A program made the translations under genes and the position numbers. The notes under the pieces were generated by a model. That model was not told where the DNA came from, ran no database searches, and was given only the letters and a program-made list of their open reading frames with translations. A stretch of DNA of 64,000 nucleotides. Source: an uncultured Nitrososphaerota archaeon (GTDB taxonomy: Archaea > Thermoproteota > Nitrososphaeria > Nitrososphaerales > Nitrosopumilaceae). Shown one piece after another: positions 41,275-46,108 of the stretch (within the stretch, counting starts at the first letter, position 1; every line of letters begins with the position of its first letter). The stretch lies in NCBI GenBank assembly GCA_963824385.1, contig CAWGPD010000003.1:259976-323975 (forward strand), given 5' to 3'.

Positions 41275-42827
41275 TTACTCTATTGTTACGGTGATGTATT
41301 TTGATACTGTAATATCCTGATATCTTGCACCTAGCAAGAGTTGGTAAGTTCCTGCGTTAGCAAAATTATCTGCTGATACTGTCACCTTTTCTGTCTTTGA
41401 CTTGTCAACTGTAAGTTGGGTATTTTGTGGTATGACTGAAATATTTTGTGTTCCAGCTGTATTTGCTGTAATGATTGATACTGGTGATGTCAACTGCTCT
41501 TGTGGTGTAATGTTTAATGAAACTGTTGCATTTTGTCCACGATGTATAGTAATTGAGGTATCAGACGCATTTACTTGAATTGGTAATGGTATACTAGAAT
41601 CCAGAACACCTATGTTATTTTCAACCCATTCTGCAAACCACACCTTGTTGTGGTATACTGTAAAGTCAAGAACTTGGGCTACTCCGCAGTCTTGCAATGT
41701 TCCACAATCAGACCAGTTGGGATTCTTGGAAGGAACTAGATATTCTACAAGAGACTGAGTTGATGAATCATACACTCCTAAAGTATTTGCAACTTGTTCG
41801 TTAAACCATAGTCGTCCTTGGTCATCAAAGTGATTCCAGTATGGTCTTGATATTGGTGTCTTGATGAGTCCTGACGCATTTCCATATGAAGATATTTGTG
41901 GAGGAGAGGTTAGATATTTTGTAAATTGGTTACTACTAGGATCAAAATCAAAAAAGAGACTACTTGCAGTATCCATTATCCACAACTTGCCTGCTGAATC
42001 AATTGCAATTCCATTGGGTGCTTGAATTTCTTGAGGTAAAGTATATTGAGTATAATTGCCAGTTTTTTGGTCATATTTTACAAGATTTCCTCCCTGTTGG
42101 TATTTCCAAACTGTATACCACACATTACCTTCAGGATCAGTTGTCATTGTACTTGTAAAGTTGTAGCTTCCAGGAGATGGAATACTTGTTACATCAAGAC
42201 CTGGACCGATGCTGTCTGTAGTAAATATTCCAATTTTTTTACCAGTAAAGTCATTGACATAGGCATTTTTACCATCTATGAAAAGCATTTGTGGAAAAGA
42301 ACCATTTGTGCCGTTGCTATTAGGGAATACAAATCTTGTATAACTCTTGTCTGTTGGATTAAATTTCCAGATCAAACTGTGCTGAGAATCTGTAAACCAA
42401 ATATTGCCATCTTGAGCAGGACTAATGCCCCACATCATGGATTTTTCTCCCTTCTGCCATTGTACATTGGTAAATTCTTGGAATGTCTTTGAAGATGGAT
42501 CAAACTTACCCAAGTTGCCAGTATTTGATTCTGTAAACCATACATTACCTGCAGGATCTGTAACAATTGCCAGTGGTTGAGTACAAGCTGTTGGTATTTT
42601 GTATTCTGTAATATATGTGCTGGACTGGGCAGGACCTGTTTCACAAAAAGTTGTTCTCTTGTTGTCTGGATAATTGTCTGCAGGTGTTCCAGTAACTGTC
42701 AGACCCTGTGTTCTGATTACTAGGTGTTGCAACTCTTCCCCCTCCAAGAAATGCCGCAGCTTACTGTAGAAACTATAAATATTGCCATAAATGCTATTGC
42801 AAGAAGCCTTTTGGTATTCTTGTTCAC
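41275..42827 (-). CDS. Exported beta-propeller protein (Vgb-lyase-like/NHL repeats); frameshifted N-terminus near 42710-42765
   Basis: Repeated GNVWFTE/GNIWFTD/GRLWFNE blades; signal peptide from GTG 42827 is out of frame with the main ORF. Confidence 0.78.
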
Positions 42828-42893
42828 AAAATCTTGGCTGTTTTTACCTTGTTATATCTTATACGTAAAATGCTGAGAATGAATATGAATGAT

Positions 42894-43442
42894 TTATTGT
42901 TTTCTCTTTATTGATAATGTCTTTTGTACTTCGTTTAAACTACTTAGAAACTTTTGTTTGGCCTCGTACTCATCGGTTACTTTTATGACAATTTCTGATG
43001 CCGAAAACATGACATCTTTTACAAGTATTGGTGGGGAGAGCCCTAATAGCTCGCTTAGTATTGTAAGTATGTTGTTGAAAGTGACATTATTTTTGTAATG
43101 AAAAATTGTATTGCCATCTACAATCTTTGGGTTTGGCTCTAAAGGAATTACTAGTTCATGTGAAGCAAATTCAGTTATGAACGTCGAAATGTCTTCTTTA
43201 ATCTTTGTACTCAAATCTTCTTTTTGTGCACCGAGTTTCTCTTTTGCACTTTCCAAATCTGTTGTTGGATCGTGATAGTCTTGACCTATCATCTTTGCAA
43301 ATGTTGATTCTGTAGGGCTTTTGAGTGGAATTTCATGGATTCTAAAATTTACTGTTGCAAGCTCATCTTCTACCTCCTTTAGATTTGTTCTATTTTCTTT
43401 GATTCGGGTTGCTACCTGTTCTAAGAATGTAAAATCTGACAT
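42894..43442 (-). CDS. Uncharacterised protein coupled to the tubulin gene (N-terminal coiled-coil hairpin)
   Basis: ATG 2 nt after the tubulin stop; heptad-like helices in the first ~90 aa. Confidence 0.8.
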   Translation of the reverse strand: MSDFTFLEQVATRIKENRTNLKEVEDELATVNFRIHEIPLKSPTESTFAKMIGQDYHDPTTDLESAKEKLGAQKEDLSTKIKEDISTFITEFASHELVIPLEPNPKIVDGNTIFHYKNNVTFNNILTILSELLGLSPPILVKDVMFSASEIVIKVTDEYEAKQKFLSSLNEVQKTLSIKRKQ

Positions 43443-43444
43443 GT

Positions 43445-44830
43445 CTAGCTAAACTCATGGACTACGTCCATGAGGCTTGCCTTGAATTCCTCAGTGGTTA
43501 ATCCCCACTTTCCATATTCTTCTTTGAAAGCATCCCATGAAGCTTCTGCTTCACTTGCAATCTCTAAAATCTTTGTTCCAATTGCTTTTGTGTTGACAAG
43601 TATTGTAATATTTGCCTGTTCAGTTTCTAAGATTGGAATCTTGATGAATATCATTCTTGACTCCTCGATGTGGAATCTGTCTTTTATTATGTTCTTTATG
43701 ACGTCTCTTTCCTTTGCTTCAAAATCTCCACTTATTTTGACAAGTATGCAACAAGAGTCTTTAGGTCCACCTTTGTCTCTTATGTCATTTTCATCAATAT
43801 CAAACAATACTGCATCTTCTTTCTTATTGATGTGTTCTATGATTCCCTCCATTGTGTTATGTTTAGTACCGGTCAAATCAGCACCCCATTGTCTTTCTTC
43901 TGGAACCACTGGAATTACCCATGTGACTGCAAATCTTGGTCTTTTTGTTGCAAGCCATGTCCTATAGTTTGACATATCCCACTCTGTTTCTCTTGCAAAG
44001 GATGCAACAAACATTGACATTGCATTTGCCGCAATCAAGTTCATTCCTCTATAATCCTTCCAACCTACCTCGTGTTCCTTTGGAAGATCATCTATAATTG
44101 ATGACATTTTGTCTAATCTTTTCTCATGCTTTTGTGCTAGCTCTCTTAGTCTTTTATTTGAAAATAGAATTGAACAATCGCTGTATTTTATCTGATATTC
44201 TAGATTCATTACAATATTGATGGCAGATGCTTCTAAAATTACTGGATCCCATCCAAACTCTGGCAATAATCCAAATGATGCAATTGTTGCATGCTCCTTT
44301 GTATCTTTTTTAATATATTCCATGAAAGCACTGGCAAATGAGGCACCTGTGCCCCCGCCCATTGCAAATGGAACTGTAAAACCTCTAACTGGTTCTGGAG
44401 AAAGACTGGAAAGTTGCTTTTGCATATCGTATTTTGTACTTACTTCTTTGATGAATCTTGTACGGCCCTCTGCCCAATTTCTTGCAGCACCTCCAGATCC
44501 TGATATTACATGCTTGTCTCTTAGTGCAAAAAGATCTGGATATGACTGTAATATCAAATTGGCAGCTCTTGGGTCTAGATCGATTAATAGTGCTCTTGGA
44601 ATTAATGGAATTTCACTTCCGCCGTATGTATTTGGAAATCGCAAAATAGTACTTCCATATCTCTTGAGGATGCGGGATTCATCTTTTTCACCCTTTAAAG
44701 TTGGTTTTAGGGGATTAGCGCCAATGTCAATTAATAATCTTCTATATGTCTCTGCCCCAAGACCGATTCCGCAATGACCAAAACATGTCATTATAACTGG
44801 TGCGGGTGGTAATGGTGCAAACTTTGACAA
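43445..44830 (-). CDS. Tubulin of eukaryotic type (artubulin-like)
   Basis: GHCGIGLG, PRALLIDLDP, GAARNWAEG, GGGTGAS, and C-terminal AFKEEYGKWGLTTEEF matching tubulin H11-H12. Confidence 0.9.
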   Translation of the reverse strand: MSKFAPLPPAPVIMTCFGHCGIGLGAETYRRLLIDIGANPLKPTLKGEKDESRILKRYGSTILRFPNTYGGSEIPLIPRALLIDLDPRAANLILQSYPDLFALRDKHVISGSGGAARNWAEGRTRFIKEVSTKYDMQKQLSSLSPEPVRGFTVPFAMGGGTGASFASAFMEYIKKDTKEHATIASFGLLPEFGWDPVILEASAINIVMNLEYQIKYSDCSILFSNKRLRELAQKHEKRLDKMSSIIDDLPKEHEVGWKDYRGMNLIAANAMSMFVASFARETEWDMSNYRTWLATKRPRFAVTWVIPVVPEERQWGADLTGTKHNTMEGIIEHINKKEDAVLFDIDENDIRDKGGPKDSCCILVKISGDFEAKERDVIKNIIKDRFHIEESRMIFIKIPILETEQANITILVNTKAIGTKILEIASEAEASWDAFKEEYGKWGLTTEEFKASLMDVVHEFS

Positions 44831-44992
44831 GTCTAATCATTATTCAAAACTGGAACTTGTCTCTTTAACCATATAGTTCAAGATTGTAAAGTCCATACTT
44901 GATAGTTATAGACATGATATTGATTTTATTCCAATTTAGATCCTATACTCAGTTCGTCTTTTTGAATTTAAGATTTAAGGAGAATTTCTTCT

Positions 44993-45292
44993 TTATTCGT
45001 CTTCTGTAATGGCATTCTTGAGTTTTCTAAACTCTTCAACTGTTATCTGACCTTCTGCAAGTCTTACTCGAAGTAGTTCTAATGACTCGTGTCTTTTACT
45101 TGGTTTGATACTTGGAGGTTGCTCCCCCTCCACAACTTTCACAGATTCGGTTAATGATTGGATATATCTATAATCAGACATGACGACAGGTTCTCCTTTT
45201 TTTATAACTTCCATTATTTCTCGTAATCTCTTTGAATCCCCCTTACCAGATGTCAGCAAATTCTTTACGATTTTTAGTATTTCTTCAGACAT
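44993..45292 (-). CDS. SHOCT-domain protein with N-terminal GD..RL module
   Basis: LELLRVRLAEGQITVEEFRKLK (SHOCT). Confidence 0.78.
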   Translation of the reverse strand: MSEEILKIVKNLLTSGKGDSKRLREIMEVIKKGEPVVMSDYRYIQSLTESVKVVEGEQPPSIKPSKRHESLELLRVRLAEGQITVEEFRKLKNAITEDE

Positions 45293-45293
45293 T

Positions 45294-46108
45294 TTATTTC
45301 ACTATAGTCTTGAATTTGGGATTCCCTTTTAGTTTATCGAATGAAGAGTCTTTGACTGCCCATTTCTTTATGGTTTTGCCATACTGAGAGATGGCCTGTG
45401 CAAGAAGAATTAATGCATCGGTATCTTCACCAAGTTGAGCCTTACTTCTTGCTTTTGCATAAATAATGGTGCCATTTTTTGGAAACTCCTTTAGTATTTT
45501 ATCAAATATGGATATTGCATCTTCATGTCTTCCAAGTTCAGATAATTCAGTTGCCTTGTAAAATAACGCTTCATTATTTTCTGGTTCTTTTTCTAGAACT
45601 TTATCAAGAAAGAATATGGAATCCTCATGCTTTCTTTGCTTACCTAGAACCAATCCCTTGTAGTAAATAGATTGTATGTTTTCTGGTTCATTACCTAGTA
45701 CTTTATTGAAGCAGTCAAGAGCCTCATCATATCTTTCAAGTCTAATTGTTGCAATTCCTTTATTGTATAATGCTGGAATGTAATTGGAATTAGTTGCTAA
45801 CGATCTATCATAATATGTGATTGCTTTTTCAAATTGTTGCAATTCCGAATAGTAATTTCCCAAATTATTTAGTGCGTCAACATGATCATGCTTGTATGCA
45901 ATTATTTTCTCAAAGCATGATACTGCGTCCTTGTTTTTCTTTAGTCTCTAACAAAGACATTCCCTTGTTGTAAAGCGCTTCTATGTTTTGAGGATCTTGT
46001 TTTAAACTCTGGTCAAAAAATGAGATCGCATTCTTGTGTTTTCCAAGCTTGGCATAACTAATCCCTTCCTAGGATCATTTTTTGGGTCGGTGTTTTATCT
46101 GAACTCAT
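45294..46108 (-). CDS. TPR-repeat protein; two apparent frameshifts in the 5' part (~45945, ~46068)
   Basis: Tandem TPRs (ALYNKG, SIYYKG, ALFYKA); further TPR codons upstream to ATG 46108 in shifted frames. Confidence 0.8.

Follow-up and report, generated by a model that had tools for sequence, protein, structure and literature searches.

Whether artubulin is an archaeal relative of eukaryotic tubulin has been debated since 2012. The closest described cases of a small gene accompanying a tubulin-family gene come from two systems. In the btubAB operon of Prosthecobacter the third gene encodes BtubC (Bklc), a TPR-repeat protein that binds and stabilises microtubules, and in the TubZRC partition systems of plasmids and phages the small adaptor or modulator genes TubR and TubY share an operon with a tubulin-superfamily GTPase, TubY combining a coiled coil with a DNA-binding domain. 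Gene 'C' of the btub operon is also given as TPR in a figure legend of the artubulin report of Yutin and Koonin (PMC3349469).

The function and localisation of artubulin have been described as untested (PMC3835317). A Snf7 gene was reported as its neighbour by Yutin and Koonin (PMC3349469), as an earlier note on this DNA correctly stated, and was placed 'upstream' of it by Santana-Molina et al. (PMC9871819); the Nitrosotenuis artubulin is described as not near Snf7 (PMC3835317). The contexts of archaeal tubulin-like genes are also said to hold unknown coiled-coil genes (Santana-Molina et al., PMC9871819). In the portions of the artubulin literature consulted (parts of PMC3349469, PMC3835317, PMC9871819, PMC13394414 and PMC4202323), no conserved gene downstream of artubulin and no artubulin interactor is named. 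A '12, conserved hypothetical protein' listed in Figure 2B of PMC3349469 could be the gene described here, and Figure 6 of PMC9871819 may also show it unnamed.

That gene lies directly behind artubulin in the window, by which we mean the whole stretch of 64,000 nucleotides that was analysed. Its product, hereafter the partner, is the founding member of a protein family that we did not find described in those same portions of the literature. Always present with artubulin in the genomes searched, it provides a concrete second component and the best available lead to the role of artubulin. As the conserved clue from genomic context it takes the place of the often repeated 'Snf7 neighbour', which is specific to one genus.

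The partner gene in the window

The partner gene occupies 42894..43442 on the minus strand and consists of 182 codons and a TAA stop (42894-42896). It is preceded by the artubulin gene, the first of the pair (43445..44830, minus strand), which encodes 461 aa from a TTG start as called; its product matches the Pfam Tubulin/FtsZ family (PF00091, E 4.3e-16) and is 75-97% identical to orthologues in the window's own family. The earlier note had placed the partner ATG 2 nt past the tubulin stop on the same strand. The list of open reading frames and the sequence itself confirm this: the artubulin TAG (43447-43445) and the partner ATG (43442-43440) are separated by the two bases AC (43443..43444, minus strand), and both peptides quoted in that note are present in the partner translation. 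An AT-rich intergenic region of 162 nt (44831..44992, minus strand) lies 5' of artubulin and likely contains the promoter of the pair. The unit likely ends within the 146 nt (42748..42893, minus strand) that extend 3' of the partner up to the next called reading frame.

The partner is a real gene under purifying selection and no chance reading frame, because its median pairwise dN/dS is 0.058 (0.031 for artubulin over the same 72 pairs, dS unsaturated), its AlphaFold2 model has a pLDDT of 93, and of the 375 candidates from a word-indexed protein search, 295 are homologues at E ≤ 0.01. Almost all of these homologues are 181-183 aa long, and those with names are annotated 'hypothetical protein' and come from Nitrosotalea or Thaumarchaeota MAGs. 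An exhaustive search of 1.84 billion cluster representatives returned 30 relatives at E ≤ 0.001; three long repetitive proteins (P0148-P0150, E 2e-4 to 8.5e-4) were judged to be false positives and kept out of every alignment. Searched against Pfam and NCBIfam, the partner has no match above noise.

RNA libraries provide a weak hint of expression. Small parts of the stretch are contained in three metatranscriptome runs (word shares 0.05-0.09), and nothing follows from the parts without coverage. The junction between the two genes is spanned by three RNA-library contigs from two studies (X1 records 2 and 3; X3 record 7), which extend at least 38 bases to either side and reach 38-50 bases into the partner, and one further contig of 346 nt lies inside the partner gene; such contigs can derive from DNA, and a two-gene contig is no proof of a single transcript.

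Linkage of the partner to artubulin across genomes

We searched a class sample of 301 genomes for artubulin (E ≤ 1e-10) and for the partner (profile A1, E ≤ 1e-3), and found artubulin in 70 genomes and the partner family in 100. The partner is present in all 70 artubulin-bearing genomes. At 70 of the 71 artubulin places the partner match lies directly 3' of artubulin on the same strand, with 5-27 nt between match ends, stop codon included. The exception is G288, where both genes are cut at contig ends and lie on separate contigs. These counts take in three unpublished genomes (G132, G231 and G283), each with an adjacent pair, without which the figure is 67 of 298. Co-occurrence and adjacency with artubulin, which the earlier note had put forward as a check on its proposal, are thus almost perfect inside artubulin-bearing lineages.

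The same arrangement is seen in named species-representative genomes, for which we compared the best 80 of 194 artubulin loci, titled Nitrosotalea (including Candidatus Nitrosotalea devanaterra, LN890280.1), Nitrosotenuis and Nitrosopumilaceae MAGs. At the 78 loci whose contig leaves room 3' of artubulin, the partner without exception begins 2-16 nt past the artubulin stop; at the remaining two the contig edge falls 45 nt past, or before, the artubulin end. A metagenome scan with a divergent partner sub-clade yielded 16 loci. Artubulin (44-59% identity) stands immediately before the partner (29-36% identity) at all 12 of these with more than 100 nt upstream, and the other four have at most 72 nt upstream. 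The pairing is also kept in G262, a genome of family f4. The window protein has all the features by which we delimit the artubulin-partner family, namely a length of about 181-186 aa, a hairpin followed by an alpha/beta domain, and a start within 16 nt of the artubulin stop.

When 21 loci were compared, the artubulin-partner pair was the sole constant element, with neighbours on both sides varying by genus. The upstream neighbour is a SHOCT-domain gene in seven loci (genera g1, g9 and g16), an Nre gene in three (g2), a Snf7 gene in three (g5) and an opposite-strand zinc-ribbon gene in three, and is unique in five. The Snf7 gene, which encodes a 206-aa protein (PF03357, E 2.1e-9 for the copy in L052), is directly 5' of artubulin in all three g5 loci (L052-L054) and nowhere else among the compared loci, and there is none on the window's contig.

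In the window, artubulin is directly preceded on the same strand by two genes, one for a 99-aa SHOCT-domain protein and one for a 189-aa TPR protein (44993-45863, minus strand). The SHOCT gene is conserved upstream in g1, g9 and g16 and the TPR gene (45294-45863 here) in g1 and g9 only. Standing two genes 5' of the partner's artubulin, the TPR gene recalls BtubC, and it is outside the constant pair.

Three further contigs deserve mention. Contig L149, deposited under Gammaproteobacteria bacterium BBSC-SA02 (BMAH01000059.1), encodes an artubulin of 79% identity and, 14 nt behind it, a partner of 54% identity, and is probably a mis-binned or mislabelled archaeal contig. At L087:4780-4800 the partner differs from the window by one base in length, which disrupts its frame near codon 133, and the DNA beyond is still alike; the cause is either a recent frameshift or an assembly error. 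On the metagenomic contig L067 (4647-5980) artubulin is split over two frames (residues 5-179 and 182-461), with an intact partner behind it.

Joint loss of the two genes

Artubulin is missing from 116 of the 180 genomes sampled in the window's family, and none of these 116 has an intact partner. Relics of the partner, about 40 residues with stop codons, are present in G146, G183 and G104. Alignment of G146, a species of the window's genus, to the window reveals that the SHOCT gene, artubulin and roughly the first 141 codons of the partner went together, in a single deletion that spans about 2.25 kb (window 43019-45271). The last 37 or so codons remain (L042:5869-6006, corresponding to window 42907-45272). 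As one deletion removed artubulin and most of the partner, the pair was dispensable in the G146 lineage.

The spacing of 2-16 nt, retained in lineages whose partners have diverged to about 30% identity, the lack of any other constant neighbour and the joint loss point to a partner that functions with artubulin. The reading that we prefer, and consider probable, is that artubulin and the partner form a two-gene operon, with the partner gene in second place, and that the partner is an accessory subunit that would work directly with the polymer; the co-transcription, binding and filament effects that this entails are what we infer. Both proteins would probably be made from one mRNA, given how closely the partner start follows the artubulin stop in every lineage examined. 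The partner most likely binds the artubulin polymer, where it would either regulate assembly or couple the polymer to something else.

The gene arrangement resembles that of BtubC, with which the partner had been compared in the earlier note. In both cases a small non-tubulin gene is co-oriented with, and directly follows, a tubulin-family gene, and by analogy this arrangement suggests an accessory subunit. The comparison holds for role only: the partner has no TPR repeats by Pfam, NCBIfam or its AlphaFold2 model, and there is no sequence or fold relation between the two proteins.

Homologues without artubulin

Of the proposal in the earlier note, a 'dedicated tubulin-binding factor' in a two-gene module, the tight, conserved two-gene unit is supported. 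The word 'dedicated' needs qualifying: 27 of the 231 artubulin-less genomes of the class sample hold an intact partner homologue, full-length in five (family f2) and short in 22 (family f3). The presence of homologues in genomes lacking artubulin, which that note had named as counting against its proposal, is thus partly borne out: intact ones occur in the class sample but in none of the artubulin-less genomes of the window's family.

The full-length homologue of f2 is present in five of nine genomes, which are all five of genus g23, and is 33-37% identical to the partner; tblastn of two of the loci found no artubulin. In all five loci (L034:7391-9781; L035, L180-L182) the gene sits behind a radical-SAM gene and before genes for a 93-110-aa protein and an acyl-CoA synthetase-like protein. 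It is back-to-back with an archaellin cluster comprising two Arch_flagellin genes and a gene for a 412-aa coiled-coil protein. The family of the roughly 100-aa neighbour protein also occurs a few genes 3' of the pair in f5, and this common downstream family argues that the f2 orphan locus and the f5 pair locus are orthologous.

The short form of f3 (about 123-158 aa) is present in 22 of 39 genomes. It keeps the alpha/beta domain and has only a short N-terminal helix, the hairpin being missing. Its gene is directly behind a dual-specificity phosphatase gene in nine of 18 loci, near Rpr2, S19e and Nep1 in eight, and in a different setting in one.

Two single genomes add to this picture. In G174 the partner occurs a second time (L040:5485-6141), with no artubulin and next to a trypsin-like peptidase gene, which it follows. 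In this copy the canonical ATG is now ATC and a GTG at codon 2 would have to be the start; the genes downstream match the pair locus of G266. In G209 (L041:3810-4883) all that is left of artubulin is an open C-terminal fragment of 171 aa (residues 295-461), and the partner that follows it directly is intact (182 aa). The f2 and f3 orphans, the second copy of G174 and the G209 locus show that the partner can persist without a working artubulin. Intact homologues without artubulin in two sister families also mean that the partner family is older or wider than the artubulin pairing.

A phylum-wide profile search matched 22 of 401 genomes. Three matches, at E about 4e-4, are outside the order, and were rejected as coiled-coil noise in which the hairpin region aligns inside ORFs of 519-1160 aa.

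Phylogeny and distant relatives

A maximum-likelihood tree of 42 sequences, rooted at the midpoint only, groups artubulin-linked clade A (f1 and f5) with the f2 orphans and the f3 short forms; the fork has support of 86/71 and is drawn open. Standing apart are artubulin-linked clade D, which holds G262 and metagenomic sequences, clade E as its sister, and three long-branch forms. Clade E has ten members, all metagenomic proteins, and for four of them (P0135, P0138, P0140 and P0141) we found no locus among genome or viral contigs. The long-branch forms have a winged-helix-like added C-terminus. Distant metagenomic relatives with a C-terminal extension are P0136 (292 aa), P0146 (308 aa) and P0147 (239 aa). 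The extension of P0136 matches the Pfam winged-helix family TFIIE_alpha (E 8.2e-4) and P0146 aligns over the same extension; neither protein has a match in viral contigs. The pattern of the tree fits either early pairing, after which f2 and f3 lost artubulin, or recruitment of a protein older than the pairing. We regard the artubulin-linked members as a specialised branch of a protein family of ammonia-oxidising archaea.

These orphans bear on a different explanation, in which the partner would be a housekeeping or regulatory protein of ammonia-oxidising archaea that has its own artubulin-independent job and, in some lineages, shares an operon with artubulin, with no physical interaction. Each orphan group has a stable gene context that differs from that of the other, and in the midpoint-rooted tree, with its open fork, the orphan clades fall between the two artubulin-linked clades, as this explanation would have it. 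It accounts poorly for the fact that the pair is never separated across very different neighbourhoods, for the absence of intact partners from artubulin-less genomes of the window's family and for the removal of both genes from G146 at once, and the retention of the short spacing over 29-36% identity is hard to ascribe to chance linkage. We regard this explanation as rather unlikely and continue to favour an accessory subunit of artubulin.

Predicted structure and fold comparisons

The partner is predicted to be soluble and acidic, with a long hairpin of helices and a small alpha/beta domain. The AlphaFold2 model, based on a 32-row alignment, has a mean pLDDT of 93.2 and a pTM of 0.80. Its helices 4-51 and 60-92 pack as a long antiparallel hairpin with an 8-residue connecting loop (codons 4-92; 43167..43433, minus strand), and residues 1-92 carry a net charge of -7. 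Residues 93-182 (codons 93-182; 42897..43166, minus strand) are modelled as a compact domain with six strands in the order strand-strand-helix-strand-strand-strand-helix, with strands at 106-108, 111-116, 139-141, 144-146 and 150-153 and helices at 123-133 and 158-181; modelled alone, this domain has a pLDDT of 90.7. The most conserved motifs of the family, around P100 and P138 in alignment A1, are both in the alpha/beta domain. The model matches the two long N-terminal helices and compact alpha/beta-like domain that had been read from the sequence by eye.

Fold searches produced no convincing match. The full model has no match at E ≤ 0.001 in the PDB or among BFVD viral models (Foldseek), and VIA-align returns generic helical hairpins only (Z about 9), a comparison that by the tool's own warning is uninformative for helical models. 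These hairpins include, side by side, those of Smc, CT398, seryl-tRNA synthetase, IpaB, CHMP4B/Shrub, prefoldin and tubulin cofactor A. A sequence-profile search of the PDB produced coiled-coil and designed-protein noise only, topped by a repeat in DC-SIGNR, and the best score in the ESM Atlas (0.75) is under the useful range. The fold searches of the partner gave no hint of a known filament-binding module. SepF, an FtsZ anchor with an alpha/beta dimer fold and a membrane-binding helix at its N-terminus, is absent among the listed structural matches of the C-terminal domain, an absence that does not exclude SepF. A search for fused or longer partner forms (540-2000 aa) found none, which is weak evidence.

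Another reading is that the partner is a divergent Snf7/ESCRT-III (CdvB) protein, and a Snf7 gene has been reported to adjoin artubulin (PMC3349469). The partner and Snf7 share an alpha1-alpha2 hairpin of similar length, and that of the partner superposes on CHMP4B (4abm_A, Z 9.1, 78 aligned) and Shrub (5j45_A, Z 8.6). They differ in C-terminal architecture, which is alpha/beta in the partner and not the helices alpha3-alpha5, and there is no profile similarity: none of the 32 members of A1, the window protein included, matches Pfam Snf7 (PF03357) at E ≤ 1, and hhalign against the genome's own three CdvB-like proteins, encoded on other contigs, gives a probability of 0.29%. The true Snf7 neighbour is, moreover, a separate upstream gene. 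The earlier note could not confirm Snf7 motifs and judged the C-terminal half unlike CdvB, and these results agree with it. Snf7 identity is refuted at the level of sequence and domain architecture, and we consider this origin extremely improbable.

Superposition of the hairpin on prefoldin beta (2zdi_A, Z 9.0; 1fxk_A, Z 8.9) and on cofactor A (1h7c_A, Z 8.7), together with contacts of two of 32 family members to Pfam Prefoldin_2 (best E 0.0022), could point to an artubulin assembly chaperone, a functional analogue of prefoldin or tubulin cofactor A that serves folding and not filament function. Dozens of unrelated hairpins reach the same Z, however, among them those of Smc, seryl-tRNA synthetase, IpaB and CHMP4B, so that the superposition has no discriminating power. 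Prefoldin has beta-hairpins between its two helices, whereas here an alpha/beta domain comes after helix 2; the window protein does not match the prefoldin profiles (PF01920/PF02996), and the orphan forms have no tubulin client. Such a chaperone is in our view very unlikely.

Among the fold leads for the C-terminal domain, the TBP repeat alone is consistent. The domain's top VIA-align matches are TBP chains (1pcz_A, Z 6.1, rmsd 3.5, 75 aligned; 2z8u_P, Z 5.8; 1mp9_B, Z 5.5), and the TBP matches overall are weak (Z 5.5-6.1, rmsd 2.9-3.8, 67-78 aligned), a Z of about 6 being below the level that unrelated models typically reach in this tool. RpoL/Rpb11 matches follow after TBP at Z about 4, and Rpo11/Rpb11 is the best match to the domain in the PDB by Foldseek (E 0.04-0.1). 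These are the best structural likenesses of the domain, and no sequence-profile relation to TBP accompanies them, hhalign of the partner family against the genome's own four TBP repeats giving a probability of 0.1%. We treat the TBP likeness as a lead only.

This lead, the winged-helix-like C-terminal region of the distant relatives P0136 and P0146, and one published phylogeny that places artubulins with TubZ (PMC4202323) are consistent with a cargo or DNA adaptor similar in role to TubR and TubY, with the hairpin on the polymer and the alpha/beta domain, perhaps as a dimer, on nucleic acid or a DNA-bound protein. The partner resembles TubR and TubY as a small gene in a probable operon with a tubulin-superfamily GTPase, and some of its distant relatives, but only these, do so in the winged-helix-like extension. 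The window protein itself lacks a helix-turn-helix and any sequence similarity to TubR or TubY, and a repeat search of 42600-45400 found no iterated centromere-like repeats near the genes, with short two-copy matches only. TubZRC belongs to plasmids and phages, whereas the partner locus is chromosomal and vertically conserved. We find an adaptor of this kind doubtful and give it only a small chance.

Proposed role of the two partner domains

If the partner is, as we favour, an accessory subunit of artubulin, its two parts may do different things. The hairpin would be a natural candidate surface for the filament or for self-association, since it is missing from the f3 forms, which live without artubulin; this assignment is weak, as the f2 orphans keep the hairpin. 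The alpha/beta domain, which is retained more widely, appears to be the ancestral module and may have contacts elsewhere. The orphan homologues offer a natural comparison for telling filament-linked parts of the protein from the rest. Complex prediction for artubulin and the partner from separate alignments gave a score of 0.00 and a mark of 0.32, values that speak neither for nor against binding.

A bolder model, to which we attach a low probability, would make the partner and artubulin a two-component cytomotive machine, with the hairpin on the polymer and the TBP-like domain, joined in distant relatives by the fused winged helix, on nucleic acid. If this were true, the partner would be an adaptor coupling the filament to DNA or cargo and an archaeal chromosomal counterpart of TubZ-TubR-type segregation, and the orphans of the sister families would represent the ancestral adaptor domain working without a filament.

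FtsZ has a conserved C-terminal docking peptide. In artubulin, the last 20 or so residues (window 43445-43510) are invariant or nearly so in 18 orthologues down to 53% overall identity, and by analogy with the FtsZ peptide this tail suggests a possible binding site for the partner.
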